DNA of 64,000 bases from positions 2,112,001-2,176,000 of the forward strand of contig OZ241322.1 of NCBI GenBank assembly GCA_965199715.1, read 5' to 3'. Below, piece by piece: positions 46,799 through 58,394 of this stretch. A program made the position numbers and the translations under genes. Position 1 is the stretch's first letter. The number at the start of each line of letters is the position of its first letter. Below the pieces are notes generated by a model. It did no database searches. It saw only the letters and a list, made by a program, of their open reading frames with translations, and was not told where the DNA came from. This DNA comes from Vicinamibacteria bacterium (GTDB lineage Bacteria > Acidobacteriota > Vicinamibacteria > Marinacidobacterales > Marinacidobacteraceae).

Positions 46799-47037
46799 TC
46801 GAGGTCCGGTTCTTCGCCGCCGCCCGCGAGGCCGCGGGCGCTTCGCGGCTCGAGCTCCCCTGGCGGGACAGCGTGACCGCGCTCGAGGTCTGGTCCGGGC
46901 TGATGCGCGACCGCCCGGCGCTGCGGGCGCTCGACGCCTCGGTGAGCATGGCGGTGAACCGCCGCCACGTTCCCCGGGAGACGCCGCTCAAGGACGGCGA
47001 CGAGCTCGCGTTCCTGCCGCCGGTCAGCGGCGGCTGA
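46795..47037 (+). CDS. moaD: Molybdopterin synthase sulfur carrier
   Basis: VRFFAAARE, AVN and DGDELAFLPPVSGG. Confidence 0.93.
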   Translation: MIEVRFFAAAREAAGASRLELPWRDSVTALEVWSGLMRDRPALRALDASVSMAVNRRHVPRETPLKDGDELAFLPPVSGG

Positions 47038-48265
47038 GCCGCTCGACCAGCCGCTCCCGCCGCGCCCGGAACCGCTCCCGGAAGTCCGCCGGCAGGCGGG
47101 GAACCCGGTCGAGGCGCTCCTCGGCGTCCTCGACATGCAGCAGCGCGCGGGCGAAGTCGCAGTATTGGTGCTCCTCGATCTTCGCGAGCTCCTCGAGCGC
47201 CTCGATCTGCTCCCGGTGGTCGCCGGGAACGATCTCGGCGAGCCGGGCGGTGGCCGCTTCGATCTCTCCGGCCCGGCGGCGGATGCGCCCCAGCTCCAGC
47301 AGGCAGCGGTTGCGGTGCGTCCCGCCGAGCCCCATGGCGAGCGCCGCCTCGAAGCGCGGGACCGCCCGCTCCGGCTCGCGCCGGTTCAGGAAGTGCCGGC
47401 CCACCCGGAAGAGCTCCTCGGAGTCCTCGCCGCGCCAGTCGTCCCGGCAGAGCTCGACGGCCCCGAGCGAGAGCGCGGCGAGCGTGCGGATGTCGTGGCG
47501 GTTGTGCGAGAGCACGAGGCCCATCGCCGGGTGCCCTCCGGTTCGCAGCGCCTCGAAGAACACCCCCGGAATCTGCGCCCCGGGGATGTCCTCGTCGCGC
47601 TCGACCCCGACGACCTCCCGCTCCAGCGTGGTCAGTTTCGCCCCGTCGTCGCGCCGGAAGATGCGCCTCGCGGTGTGGTACATGTCGAGGTGTCGCATCC
47701 CGGCGAACGGATCGGGCAGCCGGTGCATCGCGAAGCGGGTCTCCAGCAGCGGCATGTCGAAGGCGCGTCCGTTGTAGGTGACGAGGCAGTCGCGATCGCC
47801 CGCCAGCGCCGCGATCGCGTCCAGCATCGCGCGCTCGCCGGCCATCGTCCGCATCAGGAACTGGGTGACCCGGAACGAGTTCCCGCGGATCCGGCCCACG
47901 CCGACGAGAAACGCGTAGGTGCCGGTCCCGCCCGAGAGGCCGGTGGTCTCGGTGTCGAGGAAGAGCGCCCGGCGGAGATCCACCGGCTCCCGGTCCGGAA
48001 CGACGTGCAGCAGCCCCGACTCCGCCTCGCTCACCCCGGCGAGGCCGGCGAGCGTCGAGCGGCCGTAGGGAACCTCGAGCGGAAAGTCGTGGTCGCTCCG
48101 CACCCACGGGTCGCCGGCCGGCGGGCGCGGCGCCGGGCGCTTCCAGCCGGCCTCGGTCCGCTGGACCAGCTTCCGGAGCCGGGCGATGCGGTCGTCGGGC
48201 GGGGACGGCGAAACGACGCGGGGGCGCATGCTCTCGAGGCGCTCCCGCAGCGACTGCTTCGTCAT
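47024..48265 (-). CDS. YprB/MrfB-like RNase H-fold exonuclease with TPR-like C-terminus
   Basis: FLDTETTGL, TYNGRAFD, HLDM, DIPG..IP, HNRHD and ELAK..EH. Confidence 0.85.
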   Translation of the reverse strand: MTKQSLRERLESMRPRVVSPSPPDDRIARLRKLVQRTEAGWKRPAPRPPAGDPWVRSDHDFPLEVPYGRSTLAGLAGVSEAESGLLHVVPDREPVDLRRALFLDTETTGLSGGTGTYAFLVGVGRIRGNSFRVTQFLMRTMAGERAMLDAIAALAGDRDCLVTYNGRAFDMPLLETRFAMHRLPDPFAGMRHLDMYHTARRIFRRDDGAKLTTLEREVVGVERDEDIPGAQIPGVFFEALRTGGHPAMGLVLSHNRHDIRTLAALSLGAVELCRDDWRGEDSEELFRVGRHFLNRREPERAVPRFEAALAMGLGGTHRNRCLLELGRIRRRAGEIEAATARLAEIVPGDHREQIEALEELAKIEEHQYCDFARALLHVEDAEERLDRVPRLPADFRERFRARRERLVERLSRR

Positions 48266-50526
48266 GCGCCGCCGAGGATGGCGAGCGCGGCCGCCTTGCC
48301 GTTCATCCCGATCTCCTCGGTCGGGCCGACGCACGACGGGCACCCTGAGCGGCACTCGCACCGCTCGATCAGCGCCCTCGTCTCGGCGAGCAGGCGCTCG
48401 CGTTCCTCGAAGATCGGCTCCGAGAACCCGACCCCGCCCGGGTAGTTGTCGTAGATGAAGATGCGCGGCGCGGCGGCGAGCGCGTCCGCCTCCTCGTCGG
48501 TCGAACCCACCGCGACCCCGACGTCGTGGATCTCGCTCATGACGAGCGTGGCGGCCACCGCCCGCATCGCGTTGCGGATCCCGATGATCCCGTCGCGCCG
48601 GTCCTCGGGCCCGAACCCGGTCGCGAGCAGCAGCTCGGACCCCGGATCCAGCCAGAACGCCGTCGTGTGCATCTCGACCGCCGGCATCTCCAGCTCGCCC
48701 GAACCCACGTTCTCGCCGGTGCCGAACTTGATCTTCTTGAAGCCCACCGTCTGCTTCACCACGTGCACCTCGCCGTGGGCGGCGGGGACTCCGGGGCCTT
48801 CGGCGCTCTCCTCCGTGTCCAGCACCGTGACCTTCGTGTTCGTGATCGCGTCGGTGTAGTAGTCGCTCTCGATCGGGCGCACTTCGGCGCGGCGGTTGCG
48901 ATGGTCGAGCCGCTCCACGACGTGGGTCTCGCTCTCGACCATGTGGATGGCCTTCTCGTGGAGCGCGGTGTGGGCGCTCACGAAGTCCACCTCGCCGATG
49001 ATCTGGCCGGTCCGGAGGTTGTGCACGACGAAGTTGTCGGAGCTCACCGATCGCAGGCTGACGCTGCTCGCCGGGTACGAGTCGGCGGTCCAGTGCCACT
49101 GGTCGCCGGACCGGTGAAGCAGCCCCTCCTCCTCGAGCAGCCCGAGGAGTTCGCCCGGATCGTTCCCGAACGCCTCGCCGTCCCGAAACGGCAGCTCGAA
49201 CGCCGCGCACTTGACGTGATCCACGAGGATCGCGAGGTTGTCCGGGTTCACGAGGCCCTGCTCCGGCGCGCCCTCGAAGAACCAGTCGGGGTGCTGGATC
49301 ACGAACTGGTTCGTCGGCGACGAGTTCGCGACGAGCACCGCCGCCGTGGTTCCGCCCCGTCGTCCGGCGCGGCCCGCCTGCTGCCAGGTCGAGGCGATGG
49401 TGCCCGGATACCCGGCCATGACCACCACGTCGAGCCCGCCGATGTCGACGCCGAGCTCCAGCGCGTTCGTGGACACGACGCCCCGCACCTCCCCGCTCTT
49501 GATCCCCCGTTCGATCTCGCGGCGCGTCTTCGGCAGATAGCCGCCGCGGTAGCTGCGGATGCGGCCCTTCTGGTCCGGCTTTCGTTCGAAGTCGTCCTTC
49601 AGGTAGCGGACCAGCACCTCGGCCGCGTTCCGGGAGCGGGCGAACACGATGGACTGGAGGTTCCTTCGCAGGAACTCCCGCGCGATCCGGCGGGTCTCGC
49701 TCCGGTACGAGCGGCGGATTCCCAGTTCGGGGTTGACCACCGGCGGGTTGTAGAAGACGAAGAACCGCTCGGGCCGGGGCGCGCCGCTGCGCGTGACCAG
49801 CTCGACTGGCCGGCCGATGAGGCGCGCGGCCAGGTCGCCCGGGTTCCCGATGGTCGCCGAGCTCAGGATGAACTGCGGTTCGGAGCCGTGGTGGCGGCAG
49901 ACGCGGCGCAACCGGCGGAAGACGTTCGCGAGATGGCTCCCGAACACGCCGCGGTAGGTGTGCATCTCGTCGAGCACGACGTACCGGAGGTTCTCGAAGA
50001 GCTTCGCCCACTTGGTGTGGTGGGGAAGGATCCCGGAGTGGAGCATGTCCGGGTTGGTGAGGGCGACATGGGCGCGGGTGCGGATGGCCCGGCGGGCGTC
50101 GCCCGGCGTGTCGCCGTCGTACACGTCCGCCCGCACGTCGGGGCCGAGCGCGCGGGCGAGCGCGAGGAACGCGCCGCGCTGGTCTCGCGAGAGCGCCTTG
50201 GTGGGGAACAGGTAGAGCGCCCGGGCGTCGGGTTCGCGCAGGATGCGATTGAGGACCGGCAGGTTGTAGCAAAGGGTCTTGCCCGACGCGGTCGGCGTGG
50301 CCGACGCCACGTCCGCCCCGGCCTCCACTCGGTCCACGACCTCGCGCTGATGCGAGTAGAGCCGCTTGACGCCCCGCTCCGCCAGCGCCGACGCGAGCCT
50401 CGGATCGAGCCAGCCGGGAAGGTCGGCGTACTCCGCCGGCTGCGGCGGGAAGTGGGCGATGCGGGTCACCGCCTCCAGCCTGCCCAAGTTCCGAATCGTC
50501 CGGCGGATGCGCTCCTCGGGGGTCAC
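48262..50526 (-). CDS. DEAH-box helicase with DUF1998 (YprA/MrfA/Hrq1-like)
   Basis: TPTASGKT, FPTKAL, DEMH, SAT, QQAGRAGR, IYDNYPGGVG and CECRSGCPSC. Confidence 0.92.
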   Translation of the reverse strand: MTPEERIRRTIRNLGRLEAVTRIAHFPPQPAEYADLPGWLDPRLASALAERGVKRLYSHQREVVDRVEAGADVASATPTASGKTLCYNLPVLNRILREPDARALYLFPTKALSRDQRGAFLALARALGPDVRADVYDGDTPGDARRAIRTRAHVALTNPDMLHSGILPHHTKWAKLFENLRYVVLDEMHTYRGVFGSHLANVFRRLRRVCRHHGSEPQFILSSATIGNPGDLAARLIGRPVELVTRSGAPRPERFFVFYNPPVVNPELGIRRSYRSETRRIAREFLRRNLQSIVFARSRNAAEVLVRYLKDDFERKPDQKGRIRSYRGGYLPKTRREIERGIKSGEVRGVVSTNALELGVDIGGLDVVVMAGYPGTIASTWQQAGRAGRRGGTTAAVLVANSSPTNQFVIQHPDWFFEGAPEQGLVNPDNLAILVDHVKCAAFELPFRDGEAFGNDPGELLGLLEEEGLLHRSGDQWHWTADSYPASSVSLRSVSSDNFVVHNLRTGQIIGEVDFVSAHTALHEKAIHMVESETHVVERLDHRNRRAEVRPIESDYYTDAITNTKVTVLDTEESAEGPGVPAAHGEVHVVKQTVGFKKIKFGTGENVGSGELEMPAVEMHTTAFWLDPGSELLLATGFGPEDRRDGIIGIRNAMRAVAATLVMSEIHDVGVAVGSTDEEADALAAAPRIFIYDNYPGGVGFSEPIFEERERLLAETRALIERCECRSGCPSCVGPTEEIGMNGKAAALAILGGA

Positions 50527-50562
50527 GCCTGAATTATCCCGCCGCGCAACGCCGGAAGCGGG

Positions 50563-50657
50563 CGGAAGCGTGTGGGAATCGAACCCACCATCCCGGGGGC
50601 TAGCCCGGAATCAACGGATTTGAAGTCCGCGGAGGCCGCCAGACCCCATGCGCTTCC
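50563..50657 (-). tRNA. selC: tRNA-Sec (anticodon UCA)
   Basis: GGAAGCGC...GGACTTCAAATCCG...GGTTCGATTCC...ACGCTTCCG. Extended acceptor stem, 6-bp D-stem with 4-nt loop, long variable arm and G73. CCA not encoded. Confidence 0.92.
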
Positions 50658-50667
50658 AGGAGGCCGG

Positions 50668-50740
50668 TGGAGCTGACGGGGATCGAACCCGTGACCTCGT
50701 GAATGCCATTCACGCGCGCTCCCAGTTGCGCCACAGCCCC
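50668..50740 (-). tRNA. tRNA-Ala (anticodon GGC)
   Basis: GGGGCTGTGGCGCAACTGGGAGCGCGCGTGAATGGCATTCACGAGGTCACGGGTTCGATCCCCGTCAGCTCCA, with G3:U70. CCA not encoded. Confidence 0.95.
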
Positions 50741-50754
50741 AGTCCGGCGCCCCA

Positions 50755-50760
50755 ATTGTA
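50755..50760 (-). promoter_or_regulatory. -10 element (TACAAT) for the tRNA pair
   Basis: TACAAT 14 nt upstream of the tRNA-Ala 5' end, followed by a GC-rich stretch. Confidence 0.5.
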
Positions 50761-50763
50761 GCG

Positions 50764-51945
50764 TCAGCTCCAGCGCCGCCGGTGGTAGCTGAGCAGATCC
50801 GGCCCGGCGAGTTCCCGAGTGGAGTTGCTGTGGCGAACGTAGAACACGCGCTTGCCTTCCTTCGTCAGCCACACCGGATCGGGGGAGGCCTCCACCTCGA
50901 GCACGCACAGCACGACTCCCTTGTAGGACTCGAGGCCGATCGTCGTGTTCGCGGCCGCGGCCGGACTGAGCGCCCGGGCGATCTGGGTGGTCAGGTGCTG
51001 CACGTACTTGTCCGCGTCCCAGTTCTTCCGGTCCAGGTCGGCCTGGATGCCGAGCGGCTTGCCGTCGTCGGCGACTCCGAGGATCAGGGTGCCGCCGCGG
51101 GCGTTCAGGAATCCCGCGACCGGCTTCAGGACGCTGGTCTCTAGGAGCGCCTTCTCCGGAAGCTCCTTGCCGTAGCTGTGGATGGCGGAGCTCTTGTACT
51201 CCCGGCGGTGGTCCTCGGGTCCCTCGAGGAGCTCGTCCCGGGCGCGTTGGGCGCTCATCACCTCCGAGGCGACGATCGCGACCGAGAGCGCGATCACCGC
51301 GTATCCGGCCACCGCGAGCGTCGCGTTCAGGAAGTGTCCGGCGGCCGTCGCCGGGGCGAGCGTCGCGTGCCCGGCGGCGGTCATCGTCATGACCGCCCAG
51401 TACATCCCGGTCAGGATGCTGTCGAAGCCGCTGTCGGGGCCCTCGATGAGGTGGATGAGCGTCCCGGCGACCAGCGCCGCGAGCGCCACCGCGACCAGGA
51501 ACGCGAAGATGCGGTAGCGGGCGGCCTCCAGCGCGGTCGTGATCGTCCGGGCGGCCCGGGAGAACCGCCCCAGCGAGAAGACCCGGACGACCCGCAGCAG
51601 GCGCATGCCGCGCAGCACCGCCGACGCCTCCGCTCCGGGGACGAGGAACGCGAGCCACGTCGGCGCGATCGACAGGAGATCGATGAGGCCGAACGCGCTG
51701 AGCGCGTAGCGTCCGGGCTGGCGGTGGCAGACGAGCCGGAGGACGTACTCGACGCTGAAGAGGATCGTGAATCCGATCTCCACGGCCCGCAGCGTCCGGA
51801 CGGCGCCGGGATCGAGTCCGGGAACCGACGCCGCGACCACGACGCCGACGGTCGTCACGATGGCCCCCGCGAGGGCCATGTCGAATCGCTTCGCCGCGCG
51901 GGTGGATTGCCCGAACATCACCGAAAACAGGCGGTCGCGCATCAT
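50764..51945 (-). CDS. 6-TM voltage-gated K+-channel-like protein (degenerate filter) fused to a Schlafen/AlbA_2 domain
   Basis: S2 FSVEYVLR, S3 LIDLLSIAP, S4 LRGMRLLRVVRVFSLGR and pore YWAVMTMTAAGHATLAP. C-terminal EDHRREYKSS, AGFLNARGGTLILGVADDG and FYVRHSNST. Confidence 0.85.
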   Translation of the reverse strand: MMRDRLFSVMFGQSTRAAKRFDMALAGAIVTTVGVVVAASVPGLDPGAVRTLRAVEIGFTILFSVEYVLRLVCHRQPGRYALSAFGLIDLLSIAPTWLAFLVPGAEASAVLRGMRLLRVVRVFSLGRFSRAARTITTALEAARYRIFAFLVAVALAALVAGTLIHLIEGPDSGFDSILTGMYWAVMTMTAAGHATLAPATAAGHFLNATLAVAGYAVIALSVAIVASEVMSAQRARDELLEGPEDHRREYKSSAIHSYGKELPEKALLETSVLKPVAGFLNARGGTLILGVADDGKPLGIQADLDRKNWDADKYVQHLTTQIARALSPAAAANTTIGLESYKGVVLCVLEVEASPDPVWLTKEGKRVFYVRHSNSTRELAGPDLLSYHRRRWS

Positions 51946-53228
51946 CGAGCTCCCAGCAGCCAGTCCGGCAGGAAGAGGCTCGTCCACGGGAGGAACGTGA
52001 CGAGCGCCAGCACCACGAGCAGCGCGCCGATGAAGAACACGTTGACGCGCATCACCTCCGAGATCGTGGTCTTCGCGATCGAGCAGGTCGTGATGAGCAC
52101 CGACGCCACCGGCGGCGTCTGCTGGCCGACCGCGAGGCTGACCGTGACCATCATCCCGAAGTGTACCGGCCCGATGCCGGCGCTCTCGGCGAGCGGAAGC
52201 AGGATCGGGACGAGCAGCACCACCGCGGCGGCGCTGTGGAGGATCGTCCCCGCGAGAAGCAGGATCGCGTCGAGGAAGATCGCGACCTGCCAGTCGGCGG
52301 TCACGTGCGAAAGCACCCAGCCGGTGAGCCGCTCGGGGGCCTGCTGGTTCGCCAGATACCAGCCCAGCACGGCCGATCCGGCGACCAGCACCATGACGAC
52401 GGCGGTCTGCCGGGCCGACTCGGTGAGCGCTTCGGCGAGGTCGCCCCGGGTGAGCGCCCGGTAGAGGATCGCGCCCATCAGCAGCGCGAGGAGCGCGGCC
52501 ACGGCGGCGGCTTCGGTGGCGGTGAACCAGCCGAGGAAGATGCCGCCGAGGATCAGGATCGGGATCACGAGCGGCCACGCCGCCTGGCGCAGCGCGCGGG
52601 CGGCGCGCCCGCCGTCGAACGGGACCGACTCGCCGAAGCCGCCCCGGGTCGCGAGCGCCCGGCTGACCAGCATGATGAGGACGCCGGCGAGGACGCCGGG
52701 CACGAATCCGGCGAGGAAGAGCCGGGCGATGGAGGCGCCGGTGACCGCGCCGTAGAGGATCATCGGGATCGACGGCGGGATCAGGATGGCGATGGTCGCC
52801 GACGAGGACAGCACCGCGGCGGCGAACGGCGACGGGTAGCCGCGCTCCTTCATCGCCGGGATGAGCACGCTCCCGAGCGCCGCCGCGTCCGCGACCGCCG
52901 ACCCGGACATCTCCGAGAACAGCATGCTGGAGGTCGTCGTGGTCATCGCCAGCCCGCCCCGCAGCCAGCCCACGATCGAGCTCGCGAACTCGGTGAGGCG
53001 GTGCGAGATCCCCGCCCGGTTCATGAGCGTCCCGGCGAGGATGAACAGCGGCACCGCGACCAGCGGGAACGAGTCGGTGCCGTTGAACAGGCGCAGCGGC
53101 ACGACGATCAGCGGCGTGTCGGTGGTGCACGCGATCGCGAGCAGCGACGCTCCGATGAGGACGTAGCCGATGGGCATGCCGGTGAGCAGCAGCCCGGCGG
53201 CGGCGAACGCCGCGATCAGAATTTCCAC
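51942..53228 (-). CDS. dctM: TRAP transporter large permease
   Basis: AVPLFILAG, SGSAVADAAA, LIPPSI, FTATEAA and GQQTPPV. Confidence 0.92.
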   Translation of the reverse strand: MEILIAAFAAAGLLLTGMPIGYVLIGASLLAIACTTDTPLIVVPLRLFNGTDSFPLVAVPLFILAGTLMNRAGISHRLTEFASSIVGWLRGGLAMTTTTSSMLFSEMSGSAVADAAALGSVLIPAMKERGYPSPFAAAVLSSSATIAILIPPSIPMILYGAVTGASIARLFLAGFVPGVLAGVLIMLVSRALATRGGFGESVPFDGGRAARALRQAAWPLVIPILILGGIFLGWFTATEAAAVAALLALLMGAILYRALTRGDLAEALTESARQTAVVMVLVAGSAVLGWYLANQQAPERLTGWVLSHVTADWQVAIFLDAILLLAGTILHSAAAVVLLVPILLPLAESAGIGPVHFGMMVTVSLAVGQQTPPVASVLITTCSIAKTTISEVMRVNVFFIGALLVVLALVTFLPWTSLFLPDWLLGAR

Positions 53229-53680
53229 GGCCGCTCCCGCAGCGCCGCGCCGAGGCGGCGGACCTCGATGGCCGCGGTCAGGATCGCCGACAGCGGCAAG
53301 ACGAGGTAGAAGACCCCCATCGGGACCGGCATCGTGATCGCCCGTTCGCCGAGGAACCGCAGCGCCAGCGCCGCCCCGTACCAGGCGAGCGCGAGCTGCA
53401 GGGCGAGCATCGCCGCGTGCTCGGCGATCCGGCCGATCCGCCGGGCGCGCGAAGAGGCGCGGTCCAGCAGCTCGCGGATGCCGATGTGGGCGCGGTCGCG
53501 CCGGGCCAGCACCGCGCCGAGGAAGGTGAGCCACACGAGCAGGAAGCCCGCGAGCTCGTCGTAGAAGCCGACCCCGCCGCCGAACCCGTAGCGCAGCGCC
53601 ACCTCGATGAGGCAGACGACGAGGATCGCCGCGAGAATCAGCGAGCAGGCGCCGGCGAGGACATCCCGCCGGCCGCTCAC
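53216..53680 (-). CDS. dctQ: TRAP transporter small permease
   Basis: 4 TM helices; V.LRY, ELA.FLLVWLTFLGA and HI. Confidence 0.88.
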   Translation of the reverse strand: MSGRRDVLAGACSLILAAILVVCLIEVALRYGFGGGVGFYDELAGFLLVWLTFLGAVLARRDRAHIGIRELLDRASSRARRIGRIAEHAAMLALQLALAWYGAALALRFLGERAITMPVPMGVFYLVLPLSAILTAAIEVRRLGAALRERPWKF

Positions 53681-54645
53681 TCGGCCAGCCTCCGGATCTC
53701 GTCGATCCACCGGGCGCCGAACCGCTCGCGGTAGTGGGCGAACACCGGCTCGGACGCCGTCCGGAACGCGGCCCGATCCACCTCGTTCACTTCAAGCTGG
53801 CCCGACAGTTCGTCCAGCAGGCGCGCGTCCTCCCCCTCGAGAAACTCGCGCATCCAGATCCCGGTCTCCTCGGCGGCTTCGAACAGCCCGCCGCGAACGT
53901 CGTCGGGCAATCCCCGGAGGAACGCGGTGCGCATCACCGGGTACGTCGGCGTGTACACGTGGTTCGAAAGCGACAGATAGCGCTGCACCTCGTGGAACCG
54001 GGCCGCCGTGAGCTGCGCCAGCGGATTCTCCTGGCCGTCCACGACCCCCTGCCGCAGCGCCGAGAACACTTCGCCGAAGCTCATCGAGGCCGGGCTCGCG
54101 CCGAGCGTGGAGAACAGCCGCACGCGCTCCGGATCCTTCGGCGTGCGCAGCCGGACGCCCGCGAGATCCGCGGGCGCCACCACCGGGCGCACGTTGTTCG
54201 TGATGACCCGGAACCCGTTCTCCCAATACGCCAGCAGCGTGATCCCGTGCGCCTCCTCCAGCCCCGACGCGAGCGTCCGGCCGATCTCGCTGTCGATCAC
54301 CCGCTCGAAGTGCTCCCGGTCGCGAATCAGGAACGGCAGGTCGAACACGCCGAACTCGGGCGCGACCGAGTGGAGCACCGACGAGGGCAGGTGCATCTCC
54401 AGCGTGCCGAGCCGGAGCCCCTCCAGCATCTCCTTGTCCTCGCCGAGCTGCGCGGTTCCGAAGACGCGGATCTCGACCCGCCCGGGGAAGCGCGCCTCGA
54501 CCAGTTCCTTGAAGCGGTTCGCGCCGTGGTCGAAGGGCGATCCGGGGAAGCCGATGTGCCCGAGCCGGATGACCGTGGGCCCCTCGTCGCCGGCGGGGCC
54601 GCATCCGAGGACCGCGGCGAGCAGCAGGGCGGCGGCGAGCCTCAT
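53677..54645 (-). CDS. dctP: TRAP substrate-binding lipoprotein
   Basis: Lipobox VLGC, QLG, FDLPF, WENGFR and ALRQGVVDGQENP. Confidence 0.9.
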   Translation of the reverse strand: MRLAAALLLAAVLGCGPAGDEGPTVIRLGHIGFPGSPFDHGANRFKELVEARFPGRVEIRVFGTAQLGEDKEMLEGLRLGTLEMHLPSSVLHSVAPEFGVFDLPFLIRDREHFERVIDSEIGRTLASGLEEAHGITLLAYWENGFRVITNNVRPVVAPADLAGVRLRTPKDPERVRLFSTLGASPASMSFGEVFSALRQGVVDGQENPLAQLTAARFHEVQRYLSLSNHVYTPTYPVMRTAFLRGLPDDVRGGLFEAAEETGIWMREFLEGEDARLLDELSGQLEVNEVDRAAFRTASEPVFAHYRERFGARWIDEIRRLAE

Positions 54646-54695
54646 GGGGGCGGATTGAACCACGGATGGGCGGCCTACAATCGTCCCGCCTCACG

Positions 54696-55574
54696 ATGCA
54701 ACTGGCTCTCGACGTTTCGGGCAGGGCGCCGCCGCCGTACACGCGCCAACTGCTCAAGTGGATCGGCAACAAGCAGCGATTCGCGCCGGAGATCATTTCC
54801 TGCTTCCCGACCCGGTTCGGCACGTACCACGAGCCGTTTCTCGGCGCGGGCGGCGTGCTTGCGGTGCTTGCGCCGCGCCGGGCCGAGGCGGCCGACAGCT
54901 TCGAGCCGCTCGTGGGCGTCTGGCGCGCGCTCAAGGACGATCCGGAGAGGCTCAAGCGGTGGTACCGGGAGCGCTGGGAAGGGGCGCAGCGCACGGACCG
55001 GGTCGCGCAGTACGAACGCATCCGGGCGCGCTACAACGCGTCGCCGAACTCGGCGGACCTTCTCTTCCTGAGCCGCTCCGCCTACGGCGGCGTGATGCGG
55101 TTCCGCCAAGGCGACGGCCACATGTCCACGCCCTGCGGCGTCCACGCGCCGATGCACCCCCGCAAGTTCGACCTGCGCGTGGACGAATGGCGGGGCCGGG
55201 TGCGGGGGACCGCCTTCTTCCACCGTGAGTACGAGGAGTCCATCGACCGGGCGCGCCCCGGCGACGTCGTCTATTGCGATCCCCCGTACTCGCACAGCCA
55301 GGCGATCCTCTACGGCGCCCAGTCGTTCCAGGTGGAACATCTGCTCCGGGTGATCGAGCGCGCCAAGCGGCGCGGCGCGTTCGTGGCGCTGAGCCTCAAC
55401 GGGTGGACGAAATCCGGCGACCGGACGTGCGCCTACTCGATCCCGAAACGGCTGTTCGACCGGGAGGTTCCGGTGCGGTGCGGCAGATCGATGCTGAGGC
55501 GCTTCCAGATGCCGGGTCAGTCGCTCGAGGGCGAGGTCGTCTCGGATCGCCTGCTGTTGACGCACGCCGCCTGA
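54696..55574 (+). CDS. Dam/D12-class N6-adenine DNA methyltransferase
   Basis: LKWIGNK, YHEPFLGAG and VYCDPPY. Confidence 0.9.
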   Translation: MQLALDVSGRAPPPYTRQLLKWIGNKQRFAPEIISCFPTRFGTYHEPFLGAGGVLAVLAPRRAEAADSFEPLVGVWRALKDDPERLKRWYRERWEGAQRTDRVAQYERIRARYNASPNSADLLFLSRSAYGGVMRFRQGDGHMSTPCGVHAPMHPRKFDLRVDEWRGRVRGTAFFHREYEESIDRARPGDVVYCDPPYSHSQAILYGAQSFQVEHLLRVIERAKRRGAFVALSLNGWTKSGDRTCAYSIPKRLFDREVPVRCGRSMLRRFQMPGQSLEGEVVSDRLLLTHAA

Positions 55575-56386
55575 CCACTGCCTCGCGTCCGGTACTCGTC
55601 CGCCCATTCGCCGGCGAGCCTTGGGATTTCCGCGACGACCCGCCGTCCGACGAGGACTTCGTCCACGTATCCCATGTGCAGCGCGTCGCACAGTCGGCAC
55701 AGGTGCGGCTTCCCCTGCTTCCACCACGTTTCGTACCCGTCCACCATGAAGTAGTGGCGGACCCGGACGCCCTCGTTCCGCCGCAGTTCGTCGATCTCCA
55801 TCCCGTCGAGCAGCGTCTCGAAGACGCCGCCGGACACCCGGCTTCCGAACGTGGTCGTGAAGTAGTGCTCCTTGATCTCCCAGATCGCGATCGGATCGAC
55901 CCCGGAGGGGAAGGCGCCGTCAGCGCGTCTCGAGAACGTGCGCAGCGGCTTTCCGCGGCGCGTGATCCGGGTCAGCCTTCGGGGGTCGAAGTCGCACGGC
56001 AGGTCGCCGATCGTTCGCTCGATCGTCATGTTGACGAACGCGGTCAGGCACGCGACGACCCGCTTCTCCCCGCGCTGCTTGTTGAGGGGGATCGGGCAGG
56101 TCGGCTGGAACGTCCCGCGCACTTCCTCGAAGAGATGCCGGGCCTCGCTTGCCGTCATGAGGTTCGGAGCGGCCTCCTCCGTCAGAAGGCGGGCGCGCTG
56201 CCAGAGGTAATCCAGAACGTCCTCACTCGCCTCGCCCGGCTTCAGATTCAGGCGCTGGAACGCGGCTGCGACGTCGCCCGGCGAAGGAACGACGATCGAG
56301 TCGCCGGAGCCGACCGTTTCGCTGAGCGTCCGGACCGTCGCCCAGAAGGAGCCCGGCCGGTTGCGAAAGCGCTCGACGGGCCTCAT
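55517..56386 (-). CDS. Putative type II restriction endonuclease (PD-(D/E)xK)
   Basis: RADGAFP...IWEIKEHY motif; convergent on, and overlapping, the methyltransferase. Confidence 0.6.
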   Translation of the reverse strand: MRPVERFRNRPGSFWATVRTLSETVGSGDSIVVPSPGDVAAAFQRLNLKPGEASEDVLDYLWQRARLLTEEAAPNLMTASEARHLFEEVRGTFQPTCPIPLNKQRGEKRVVACLTAFVNMTIERTIGDLPCDFDPRRLTRITRRGKPLRTFSRRADGAFPSGVDPIAIWEIKEHYFTTTFGSRVSGGVFETLLDGMEIDELRRNEGVRVRHYFMVDGYETWWKQGKPHLCRLCDALHMGYVDEVLVGRRVVAEIPRLAGEWADEYRTRGSGQAACVNSRRSETTSPSSD

Positions 56387-56393
56387 CCAGCGG

Positions 56394-58394
56394 CTACTCG
56401 GTCGCGTACTCCCAGAGCCGGAGCGCGTGCCGGGTCAGCGCCGGCAGGTCCTCGCCGAGGAGATAGCCCTCGTCGATGAGCCGCAGCGCCGCCTCGGTGA
56501 ACCGCCCGAGATAGTCCTCCCGGCTCGCGTACCGCTCGGCGATGGACCGGCGGGGATCGCCGGCCGCTTCCCGTTCGGCCGCGTCCTTCGGGAACGGGAC
56601 GAACGAGCCGACCATGCTGGAGAGCTCGTCCGGGGGGCCCGACTCCTCGTTGAAGAGGTTCCACCCGGTGTAGGTCGCGAGCGGAACCTCGATCTCCGGG
56701 AGCCGGACGCCCGAGGTCTCGTTTCCGTCGGCGTCCACCGCCGAGACGCGGATCGGGAACCGCCGTCCGATCTTGGGCGGCTCCTCGGTCACGATCCCCC
56801 GGGTCAGGAAGTCGGGGCCGTAGTCGGCCCGGTAGGCGTAGTGGACCCGATCCGACGTGCTCACTCCCGGGATTTCGGGGAAGCCGAGTTCCTCGGCGGC
56901 GACCGCCGTTCCCTCCTCCACGCTCGGATACCGGCTCTCGGGAGGCATGCCGCCGCCCCGCGCCCAATCGTCGAGCGCCAGCAGCAGCGCCCGCTGGCCC
57001 CAGCGGAAGTTGTTCGGGTTCGCGAGCTGCTGGCCGAGCGTGACCCCCGGCGGGAACCCGGACGGCCCGTGCTGGGTGCCGGCGTACATGTACACCCGCA
57101 CGTGATCCGGGATCCGGGCGTCCTCGCCGGCGTCGATCGTGGTGTGGACGAGGCTCGCGGCCCGGCCCCAGTACTCGTAGGACGAGTTCGTGTAGAAGAC
57201 CCGCGGGTAGAAGCGTTCCTCCTGCCGGGTGAGCAAGCCGGCGGTCATCCCGGTGTCGGGGTCGGTCTGCTCGACGTCGGTGAACGGGAAGATGTCCGTC
57301 GGGTGGAACTGGTTGAGGTAGGGGTGGGCGTCCCGAGAGGCTTGGGCGAACCGATGGTTGAAGCTGCCGCGCCCGCCCCCGGCCACGTCCGAGAGCACGC
57401 CGTCGAACACGCGGCGGTCGCGCTCGTCCCGGTTGAACCCGTAGAAGAGGAAGGTCCGGAGGAAGCGCCCGCTCTGCGAGATGCCGAACCCGAGCGAGGC
57501 GTCGATGTCTCCCGCGCCGATACCGAGCTCCTCCGATCCGTCGTGGCGCAGCAGCGTCACGAAGTCGCGGATCCCCGCCGGGCCGAGCCCCACGAGCGGC
57601 GGATCGGCGGACCGATAGACCACTTCGTAGATGCGGTGCGGCTGGAACCCGCCCTCGATCCAGACCGATCCGCCGTCCTCGCCGAACCCCCACTGATCCC
57701 TCGGGATCACCTCGCGCTCGTCCTCCACGCGCCGCCGGACGGTCAGCACGTGCGCCGGATCGTCCGGGTCATGCACCTTGTAGGGACGGTGGTTGCGGTC
57801 GGCGAGCGTATGGCTCGGAGTCTCGCGGGTCACGACGAAGTCGGCCCGCATGGGGCCGGTGATGGACGACCCGTCCGGGTTCCTCGCGATCGGCGTCGTC
57901 ATCCGCATCCGCAGCGGGTCGTCGTCGGGGACGTCCCACTGCCAGCCCAGCCACAGCAGGGTGAAGCCGTGCCGCATCAGGAAGCCGTCCCCGAAGTGCT
58001 CCTCGGAGGCCGGCGCGAGGCTTCCCGCCGCCATGTTGAAGTAAGAGAGCAGCCCCTTGCGCCCCCGGTTGTTCACCTCCAGCAGCAGCGTGCCCCGGCC
58101 CTTCTCCATGACCAGCGGACGCAGCAGGTGGAAGTCGGCGGACATCTCGACCCGTCCGTCCGCCCCGGTCGGGGCGAGGTCGATGTCCGCGATGATCCGG
58201 TTCGCCGGATTCGCCGGGTCGAACGCGAAGTGGACCGTGCCCACGATGCGTTCGTAGCCGCCAGCGAGTCCGAAGGCCCGCCCGCCGAGCACTTCCGAGC
58301 GCTCGGCGATCTCGAAACGGACGACCTCCGCGGCCGCGGGAGCGGCGAGCAGCGCGAGCGCCAGCGCGATCCTGATTCTTGTGAGCGTCATCAT
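56394..58394 (-). CDS. Exported alpha/beta-hydrolase-domain protein
   Basis: Signal peptide, EVNNRG, GWQWD, GISQSGRFLR (GxSxSG), EYWGR and GTQH. Confidence 0.8.
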   Translation of the reverse strand: MMTLTRIRIALALALLAAPAAAEVVRFEIAERSEVLGGRAFGLAGGYERIVGTVHFAFDPANPANRIIADIDLAPTGADGRVEMSADFHLLRPLVMEKGRGTLLLEVNNRGRKGLLSYFNMAAGSLAPASEEHFGDGFLMRHGFTLLWLGWQWDVPDDDPLRMRMTTPIARNPDGSSITGPMRADFVVTRETPSHTLADRNHRPYKVHDPDDPAHVLTVRRRVEDEREVIPRDQWGFGEDGGSVWIEGGFQPHRIYEVVYRSADPPLVGLGPAGIRDFVTLLRHDGSEELGIGAGDIDASLGFGISQSGRFLRTFLFYGFNRDERDRRVFDGVLSDVAGGGRGSFNHRFAQASRDAHPYLNQFHPTDIFPFTDVEQTDPDTGMTAGLLTRQEERFYPRVFYTNSSYEYWGRAASLVHTTIDAGEDARIPDHVRVYMYAGTQHGPSGFPPGVTLGQQLANPNNFRWGQRALLLALDDWARGGGMPPESRYPSVEEGTAVAAEELGFPEIPGVSTSDRVHYAYRADYGPDFLTRGIVTEEPPKIGRRFPIRVSAVDADGNETSGVRLPEIEVPLATYTGWNLFNEESGPPDELSSMVGSFVPFPKDAAEREAAGDPRRSIAERYASREDYLGRFTEAALRLIDEGYLLGEDLPALTRHALRLWEYATE

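Follow-up and report, generated by a model that had tools for sequence, protein, structure and literature searches.

Can a bacterial ion channel be joined directly to a nuclease, and what would such a protein do? The question is raised by a 64,000-nucleotide stretch of the genome of a Vicinamibacteria bacterium (contig OZ241322.1; "the window" below), in which one open reading frame (ORF; 50764..51945, minus strand; 393 amino acids plus stop, translated without an internal stop) encodes a voltage-sensing channel followed by a Schlafen (AlbA_2) nuclease-fold domain. A reading of the sequence alone, referred to here as the sequence-only reading, had proposed that the channel has a degenerate K+ filter and has been repurposed as a sensor that switches on a cytoplasmic RNase. 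Our analysis gives good computational support to the channel-Schlafen fusions as a family, one that appears similar to the prokaryotic Schlafen proteins (pSlfns) with a membrane channel as the partner module. As to function, we favour tentatively, at a level just short of calling it probable, a defence "chanzyme" encoded by one horizontally mobile gene, with the channel module in control of a predicted tRNase.

The fusion protein and its family

Both halves of the protein score above their Pfam cut-offs, Ion_trans over residues 21-234 (82.8 bits, cut-off 25; E 2.8e-23) and SLFN_AlbA_2 over residues 244-379 (52.7 bits, cut-off 25.3; E 7.5e-14). Together with the uninterrupted translation these matches uphold the earlier description of one intact 393-residue ORF with a channel and then an AlbA_2 domain, and the motifs quoted in that description, namely the S4 ladder, TMTAAGHAT, EDHRREYK and FLNARGGTLILGVADDG, are all where it had placed them. 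The NCBIfam Kv equivalogs score far under cut-off on the protein (21.7 against 425), and no other NCBIfam name was obtained. The first ATG of the ORF overlaps the stop codon of dctM (ATGA), and 7 nt 3′ of a GGGAG there is a second ATG (51940-51942).

The voltage-sensor domain, S1 to S4, occupies 51526..51885 (residues 21-140; this and the other parts of the ORF are on the minus strand) and has E56, F63, E66 and R70 in S2 and D89 in S3. Its S4 helix (51556..51621, residues 109-130) reads R112-GM-R115-LL-R118-VV-R121-VF-S124-LG-R127-FS-R130, with arginine at 112, 115, 118, 121, 127 and 130. The S4-S5 linker and the pore domain, S5-P-S6, follow at 51250..51525 (residues 141-232). In an alignment of the 57 full-length members (A2), E56, F63, E66, R70, D89, R118, R121 and R127 are invariant, and the protein combines a six-transmembrane Ion_trans domain, an S4 arginine repeat whose six arginines are conserved, and the S2 and S3 counter-charges. 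The channel part matches the structures of Kv4.2, Kv2.1 and Kv1.x in profile searches (E about 1e-36; KvAP, 8e-22) and those of Kv4.2, Kv2.1, Kv1.x and KCNQ by Foldseek (E down to 8e-10), and residues 3-235 are 37-47% identical to unfused bacterial channels.

The Schlafen/AlbA_2 nuclease-fold domain (50767..51216, residues 244-393) comes directly after the S6 helix. Its E-x4-E-x-K motif (E244, E249 and K251; 51193..51216) is contained in EDHRREYK, residues 244-251, and D293 (51067..51069), within FLNARGGTLILGVADDG (residues 279-295), is the Asp of a GVxDD loop that is profile-aligned to the GVDD loop of SLFN14. All four residues of this catalytic set are invariant in the 57 full-length members. 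A profile built from 72 Schlafen domains matches SLFN14 (2.8e-07), Slfn13, SLFN12, SLFN11, SLFN5 and the CRISPR-associated CbCash. The domain modelled alone from 72 sequences reaches a predicted local distance difference test score (pLDDT) of 93.7 and a predicted template modelling score (pTM) of 0.90, and it has the expected fold, with Foldseek ranks 1-36 taken entirely by AlbA_2 structures (3lmm, 2kyy), the SAMD9 DNA-binding/tRNase domain or SLFN5/11/12/13/14. In the full-length AlphaFold 2 (AF2) model (mean pLDDT 84.8) S6 is one helix over residues 201-241, followed by a strand at 248-251 that bears E249 and K251; the pTM of this model is 0.54, which makes the relative placement of the domains uncertain. 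A tetramer prediction from four copies of residues 145-393 (alignment A2) stayed below its mark (0.34 against 0.42) and speaks neither for nor against any arrangement of the Schlafen domains.

Outside the family, the nearest Schlafen domains (46-50% identity) are C-terminal in proteins of about 760 residues that carry GmrSD_N (formerly DUF262). A maximum-likelihood tree of 72 Schlafen domains groups all 21 from the fusions in a single clade (support 99/94; recovered in 100% of bootstrap trees), which is nested together with GmrSD_N-Schlafen proteins in a clade of 41 rows (100/98). An N-terminal GmrSD_N/DUF262 domain of the pSlfn7 type was not found in the fusion protein, in which Ion_trans is the only N-terminal domain. 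According to the available part of Perez Taboada et al. (Nat Microbiol 2026, PMC13056530), Ex4(E/D)xK defines the Schlafen catalytic motif, the DUF262-Slfn protein EcoSlfn7 and the Ig-like-Slfn protein RorSlfn5 guard E. coli from phages, and RorSlfn5 is a phage-activated tRNase, so that the general statement of the sequence-only reading that prokaryotic Schlafen fusions serve as anti-phage tRNases is borne out by published work. Portions of two further papers report that CbCash cleaves tRNA once activated by cA4 (cyclic tetra-adenylate; PMC13462974) and that an Enterococcus Schlafen protein defends against phage (PMC13552941).

The architecture is recurrent. A search of 5.8 billion clusters (90% identity) gave 67 rows with both PF00520 and PF04326, including the window protein, the other 66 being 49-57% identical to it and mostly about 399 residues long. 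The family is compact, and an exhaustive search of representatives found few 50% representatives that cover both domains (P0122-P0124). Full-length loci numbered 22 (one genome per species), and their hosts are Bryobacterales, Terriglobia, other Acidobacteriota, Opitutales, Rhodothermales and several Gammaproteobacteria (Pseudohongiella, Candidatus Azophilus, Pseudomonadales). A 6,495-nt contig assembled from the runs of a different study joins tRNA-Ala, the whole ORF and dctM (50695-52600) without a difference, and contigs from two metatranscriptomic libraries span 50695-52374 and 50695-52393, again with 0 differences, covering the whole ORF and the 3′ end of dctM. The RNA-library contigs break at 50454-50607 and near 52380-52450; they are a weak hint of transcription, and carry-over of DNA could explain them too. 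Because 66 other clusters share the architecture and the contig of the second study is identical, the fusion is not an assembly artefact, and the outcome that the sequence-only reading had named as its refutation, a fusion unique to this assembly or unsupported by reads, did not occur.

Within the fusion clade the taxonomy is scrambled, with Opitutales inside Acidobacteriota and Rhodothermales paired with an acidobacterium; one clade with scrambled taxonomy indicates a single origin of the fusion followed by horizontal spread. The patterns used on viral contigs recovered no full-length fusion, only two loci, both channel-only. The literature that was searched describes no channel-Schlafen fusion, and the words channel, membrane, transmembrane and voltage are absent from the main text of PMC13056530; its Supplementary Table 2, with 55 architectures, may list one. 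In one metagenome-assembled genome the fusion is present twice, on different contigs (L003 and L022); the two copies share identical sets of ORFs for about 3 kb on the upstream side and 1.4 kb on the downstream side, a sign that a block of about 6 kb was duplicated recently. In two Pseudohongiella loci (L018, L019) the third-position GC of the fusion ORF is 0.47-0.49 against a locus GC of 0.60-0.61, consistent with recent acquisition. In a Bryobacterales member (L012:9992-11281) a stop codon interrupts the reading frame near residue 48, and this copy is probably a pseudogene.

An altered filter in a conserved pore

The filter of the window copy (51358..51387, residues 187-196) is TMTAAGHATL where the family consensus is TMTTVGHGSL; the part quoted earlier, TMTAAGHAT, is residues 187-195 (window 51361-51387). 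Over the 57 full-length fusions the filter is T(M/L)TTVGH followed by G/A/S/E/P/T and then by S/E/D/T/G, and the position of the Tyr of GYG holds His in 56 and Asp (TTVGD) in one. G[YF]G occurs in 0/57 fusions against 38/43 in the closest unfused channels (P0070-P0112: 34 with GYGD, 4 with GFGD and 5 unmatched by the search pattern). Among the 270 proteins collected no Schlafen-less channel has His at this position, and two seeming unfused carriers, P0032 and P0124, are fusions by Pfam. Within the sampled proteins, then, the filter change tracks the fusion completely. The expectation that filter loss would co-vary with the fusion is confirmed by these counts, and a family in which homologs keep TVGYG or lose ExxxxExK at random, which the sequence-only reading had named as contrary evidence, is not what the 57 fusions show. 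The word "degenerate" holds for the filter of the window copy alone, since the family keeps an alternative filter, TTVGH. The K+ signature T-V-G-Y/F-G-D is lacking in the window copy, where the corresponding residues are TAAGHAT, and the protein should therefore not be called a K+ channel.

In K+ channels two residues of the outer filter, the Tyr of GYG and the Asp of GYGD, tie the filter to the pore helix. Both are altered in all 57 fusions, which suggests that the pore of the family probably conducts cations without K+ selectivity. Non-selective channels of the NaK, CNG and HCN types belong to the same superfamily, and the filter of NaK is TVGDG; as in these channels, the fusions retain the lower half (T-V-G) and differ in the upper half, with TTVGD in one member. 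We know of no characterised channel with His at the Tyr position, and among the literature matches listed for the motif TVGHG/TTVGHG there is no channel paper. The fusions have Ion_trans, the S4 arginine ladder, the S2 Phe/Glu and the S3 Asp in common with Kv channels (KvAP, Kv1-Kv4) and with unfused bacterial relatives of about 275 residues, and differ from them in that TVGYGD is replaced by a TTVGH-type filter and the zinc ribbon of the unfused relatives by the nuclease-fold domain. The nearest of these unfused channels (P0070-P0104; alignment A1, columns ~330-410) are about 270-300 residues long with a TVGYGD filter, and they end in a CxxC...CxxCG zinc-ribbon-like tail right after S6, at the position of the Schlafen domain in the fusions.

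Pairwise identity within the other 56 members averages 0.78 in the S4-S5 linker and pore, 0.71 in the Schlafen domain and 0.70 in the voltage sensor, so by this measure the pore is at least as constrained as the enzyme domain. The sequence-only reading had allowed for a non-conducting scaffold. For the family at large this appears unlikely, because the TTVGH filter is conserved and no module is more conserved than the pore; decay is confined to the window copy. That copy differs from the other members at 8 of the 34 pore columns in which these are at least 95% conserved (P178L, T190A, V191A, S208A, I212V, P221S, I225V and T226A). In the sensor it deviates at 2 of 38 such columns and in the Schlafen domain at 3 of 46, the three Schlafen changes being conservative. 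The difference between the pore and the rest of the protein (8/34 against 5/84; Fisher p = 0.0097) comes from a single lineage and is indicative only. With a relaxed pore and an intact sensor and nuclease, the window copy probably works mainly as a sensor and nuclease, which suggests that the coupling of the two may stand without normal conduction.

Insertion, neighbours and possible role

The fusion gene is present in one of 41 related genomes, namely that of the window. Three genomes of the same genus (93-95% complete, one contig each) gave no match to the fusion protein at all, and a full-length fusion was not found in 37 further relatives; genomes of the same order hold only unfused channels of about 276 residues (41-44% identity) or unrelated large AlbA_2 proteins. 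The gene lies between dctM, which encodes the large permease of a tripartite ATP-independent periplasmic (TRAP) transporter (51942..53534, minus strand; upstream edge, with dctQ and dctP further upstream), and tRNA-Ala(GGC) (50666..50740, minus strand; downstream edge, conserved in the three congeners). By DNA comparison dctPQM (51949-54675) and two tRNA genes (50561-50763) are conserved in these congeners, and the gap between dctM and tRNA-Ala is 22-74 bp in them against 1.19 kb in the window, a difference that is exactly the fusion ORF. The ORF ends 2 nt before CTACAAT, which is conserved upstream of tRNA-Ala in two of the congeners (G001, CTACAAT; G003, CTACAGT). The fusion gene is thus accessory here, an exact single-gene insertion. 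The two edges of the insertion have a similar string, GGGAGCTCGATGA at 51940-51955 (dctM end and ORF start) and TGGAGCTGA at 50762-50772 (ORF end), which may be microhomology used in the insertion or may be chance.

At other loci we scanned 118 of 142 called ORFs within 5.5 kb of the fusion, from 17 non-redundant loci; the 24 dropped were the 9 of L022, which nearly duplicates L003, and 15 short ones (9 with high second-position GC). Twenty large neighbours and alignment member 1 were also scanned individually. Defence or mobile families among the neighbours were Dsr1, AbiEi/AbiEii, mad3/mad8, ZacC, HNH, transposases and integrases. With the window included, 8 of 18 loci had a defence-family match within this distance, a raw count without a matched control: a type II restriction-modification (R-M) system in the window, PDC-S60 (L001), a DrmD/DpdE-like helicase (L004), SspC (L008), Dsr1 (L011 and L020), ZacA, ZacB and ZacC (L007) and a type I restriction endonuclease-like protein (L018). 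The anti-phage context proposed earlier fits an accessory gene (1/41) with defence matches close by at a good part of its loci (8/18, raw). For pSlfn genes, the available part of PMC13056530 gives 69.6% within 10 kb of a defence gene. Dsr1, a defence-associated sirtuin, lies directly upstream of the fusion in members of unrelated phyla, a Rhodothermales genome and a gammaproteobacterium (L020:4327-8154 and L011:6896-9529), and a Terriglobia locus has a complete ZacA/ZacB/ZacC set 347 bp downstream of it (L007:11538-17897). In an all-against-all clustering of the flanks, neighbours were common to closely related genomes only and none was conserved across taxa; the protein therefore would seem to work alone.

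The reading that we favour, the mobile defence chanzyme, can be put as a sequence of steps. The protein would be embedded in the inner membrane and, as Kv channels do, presumably form tetramers, with each S6 gate helix running on into the cytoplasm to a point three residues short of the strand that bears the Schlafen active site. A voltage change or an ion flux, as might come from phage DNA entry, pore-forming proteins or membrane damage, would move S4; this shift would move S6 and so reposition or unlock the Schlafen domains, and these, once freed, would cleave tRNA or other RNA, bringing translation to a halt. In most members the TTVGH pore would pass cations non-selectively, and opening itself would therefore depolarise the cell further, a possible positive feedback. 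What supports this reading is the conserved sensor, the pore with its new filter, the invariant catalytic set, the mobility of the gene and the kinship with GmrSD_N-Slfn proteins; from these we infer the oligomer, the gating, the RNA substrate and the role in defence. The sensor of pSlfn5 is more variable than its nuclease (available part of PMC13056530). The partner module of the fusions is not fast-evolving, which would fit a physical cue that lies out of reach of phage mutation. The full version, in which a Kv-derived tetramer with regenerative, all-or-none depolarisation through TTVGH switches on four translation-arresting Schlafen tRNase domains by way of S6 and is the first voltage-gated nuclease, we hold to be somewhat unlikely.

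Several observations weigh against the defence chanzyme. No partner gene is conserved, so the context says little on the trigger; several neighbours are housekeeping genes (phosphoglycerate kinase, citrate synthase, transhydrogenase), and 10 of the 18 loci have no strong defence match among the individually scanned proteins, a figure that likewise has no matched control. No PADLOC model matches the fusion protein. The Ex4ExK motif and the Asp are conserved across AlbA_2 domains generally, some of them without shown nuclease activity. The direction of the voltage dependence is not readable from sequence, the window copy is the longest branch inside the fusion clade (0.38), and the strong conservation of the pore and of its new His suggests that ion conduction itself matters, which fits a pore effector at least equally well.

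In such a pore effector the logic would be reversed: the Schlafen domain would sense a nucleic acid or nucleotide of infection and open a non-selective pore through S6, and the potential would collapse in an abortive infection, much as ligands act on RCK or CNBD channels and on the CARF-gated membrane effectors Cam1 and Chp1. The AF2 model places a cytoplasmic domain directly after S6, which is the classical place of channel gating domains. The pore is the most conserved module (0.78), and the alteration of the outer-filter Tyr and Asp in 57/57, with one NaK-like TTVGD, would point to selection for altered conduction and not to loss; tetrameric, ligand-opened depolarising pores are, moreover, established defence effectors (10.64898/2026.08.05.743128, as seen in part). 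We nevertheless consider this arrangement quite improbable. Mere binding would not require the invariant E244, E249, K251 and D293, and mammalian SLFNs without catalytic residues exist (excerpted text of PMC13462974); a purely ligand-gated pore would have no need of the complete and invariant voltage sensor; the window copy has dropped conserved filter and S6 residues and has kept its sensor and nuclease; and the Schlafen domain acts as the effector in those pSlfns that have been characterised (PMC13056530, available part).

A device for stress outside immunity is an unlikely explanation, if less so than the ligand-opened pore. Here the channel would read the energetic state of the cell and the nuclease would trim tRNA or rRNA, slowing translation or bringing on dormancy upon de-energisation, or else the AlbA_2 domain would regulate a cation channel of ion homeostasis. 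The window gene is translationally coupled to the TRAP transporter operon by its ATGA overlap, and the RNA-library contigs over the ORF and the 3′ end of dctM give a weak hint of co-transcription, with the same reservation about DNA carry-over. A consensus scan for promoters and terminators over 50400-54900 found 0 sites, none at the dctM-fusion junction and none of the gene's own, and is uninformative at 71% G+C. Many neighbours at other loci are housekeeping genes, and 30.4% of pSlfn genes have no defence gene nearby, with non-immune roles allowed for (available part of PMC13056530). Against this stand the patchy presence of the gene (1/41 relatives, 0/3 congeners), its insertion as a single gene at a hotspot that gained an R-M system too, a gene tree incongruent with taxonomy, several copies adjoining Dsr1, ZacABC or SspC, and a Schlafen domain sister to an architecture with proven defence activity; taken together, these are marks of an accessory or defence gene and not of core physiology. 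Lastly, the copy in this genome could be a decaying or inactive passenger without pore function in a family that otherwise works. It alone carries eight pore changes at columns at least 95% conserved and has the longest branch of its clade, and a family member (L012) has an in-frame stop. Its ORF is intact, however, the deviations in its sensor (2/38) and Schlafen domain (3/46) are few, those in the latter being conservative, all catalytic and gating-charge residues are retained, and the sequence is identical in the runs of two studies and present in RNA-library contigs, so that this explanation seems very unlikely to us.

Proteins in which a voltage sensor or channel is covalently joined to a cytoplasmic enzyme are known, namely Ci-VSP and the TRPM2/6/7 chanzymes. 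Ci-VSP differs from the fusions in that a voltage-sensing phosphatase has no pore domain and couples S4 straight to the enzyme, and TRPM enzymes are kinase or Nudix domains; homology of either to the fusions is limited to the channel superfamily, and among them we know of no nuclease and no bacterial member. Within bacterial immunity, Zorya couples an ion-conducting membrane module (ZorAB) to infection sensing and to ZorC/ZorD nuclease effectors (PMC11946911, in part), and depolarisation is the immune effector of Cam1 and Chp1 (10.64898/2026.08.05.743128, in part). Their folds (MotAB-like, CARF-TM) are unrelated to those of the fusions and they are multi-gene or second-messenger driven, whereas the fusion has sensor, pore and nuclease in one polypeptide. 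The pSlfns as described in the available part of Perez Taboada et al. (RorSlfn5, Ig-like-Slfn; EcoSlfn7, DUF262-Slfn) are similar in having a Schlafen/AlbA_2 domain with Ex4(E/D)xK, in being one gene built as "variable module plus Slfn", in an accessory setting that may in part be one of defence islands, and in the nesting of the fusion Slfn domain with GmrSD_N(DUF262)-Slfn proteins. They differ in that the module of the fusions is a membrane-embedded voltage-sensing channel and theirs a soluble sensor, that the Slfn domain of the fusions is C-terminal to a gate helix, and that partner module and nuclease are conserved to the same degree, unlike the fast-evolving sensor of pSlfn5.

Work of 2025-2026 established prokaryotic Schlafen nucleases as anti-phage tRNases under the control of soluble sensors, and the main studied case of sensing membrane events in infection is Zorya. 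The channel-Schlafen family makes concrete the idea that depolarisation itself is an immune trigger, in a form testable with ordinary tools. If the full version, that of a first voltage-gated nuclease, is true, bacteria use electrical excitability as a trigger of innate immunity and possess a compact natural voltage-to-RNase transducer. For channel biology, the family would offer a natural Kv-derived scaffold with a conserved His filter and an enzyme output coupled to S6, and the window copy a natural "pore-relaxed" variant that may separate sensing from conduction.

Flanking genes and other Schlafen proteins

Two tRNA genes start 23 bp downstream of the fusion ORF on the same strand, tRNA-Ala and then tRNA-SeC(TCA) (50561..50657, minus strand), the latter being context only. 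The sequence-only reading pointed to this adjacency in naming a candidate tRNase. A functional link is rejected, since none of the 22 related loci has a tRNA within 3.5 kb of the fusion; the nearest RNA genes elsewhere are tRNA-Asn at 3.7 and 4.9 kb and transfer-messenger RNA at 5.1 and 6.6 kb.

The two tRNA genes do mark a variable hotspot. Beyond them, at about 47024-50560 (minus strand), lie genes for an MrfA-like helicase (754 residues; DEAD/Helicase_C/WHD_HRQ1/MZB; matched by the PADLOC helicase models BrxHI, DruE and SngC) and an MrfB-like exonuclease (413 residues; RNase_H_2 and TPR), translationally coupled by an ATGA overlap. This pair is found in G003, is absent in G001 and is a remnant in the third congener (G002), as expected of variable cargo at a tRNA hotspot. 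On the other side, the segment 54584-58403 is present in this genome only among the four congeners and contains a type II methylase and endonuclease and a hydrolase: a D12-class adenine methyltransferase (54666-55574, plus strand), convergent with a DUF7687/DUF7690 protein (55517-56386, minus strand) that matches the PADLOC model of a type II restriction enzyme, and an Abhydrolase_10 protein (56394-58394, minus strand). Partial matches to the R-M part occur at another place in the G002 genome. A link of the fusion either to the helicase-exonuclease pair or to the TRAP transporter was considered and rejected, as tblastn of eight window neighbours against 80 loci found no conserved neighbour, the sole match being an alpha/beta hydrolase in L038.

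Two further groups of Schlafen proteins were met in these searches. In P0219 (402 residues) and P0185 the same Schlafen subfamily, 50% identical to residues 236-393 of the window protein, follows an MrfA zinc-binding (MZB) domain, and these are probably the C-terminal end of a helicase-MZB-Schlafen fusion clipped by the end of the contig; the combination is curious given the MrfA-like helicase beside the window gene, and no conserved linkage was found. A second membrane-tethered group (L047-L079, for example L048:9677-10489, L047:9890-10693 and L063:9683-10501; also P0118) consists of proteins of about 245-315 residues in which a hydrophobic N-terminal region of about 100 residues without a Pfam domain, its membrane segments judged by eye, precedes SLFN_AlbA_2, and its hosts are Bacteroidota (Prolixibacteraceae, Marinifilaceae, Saprospiraceae), Actinomycetota and some Proteobacteria.

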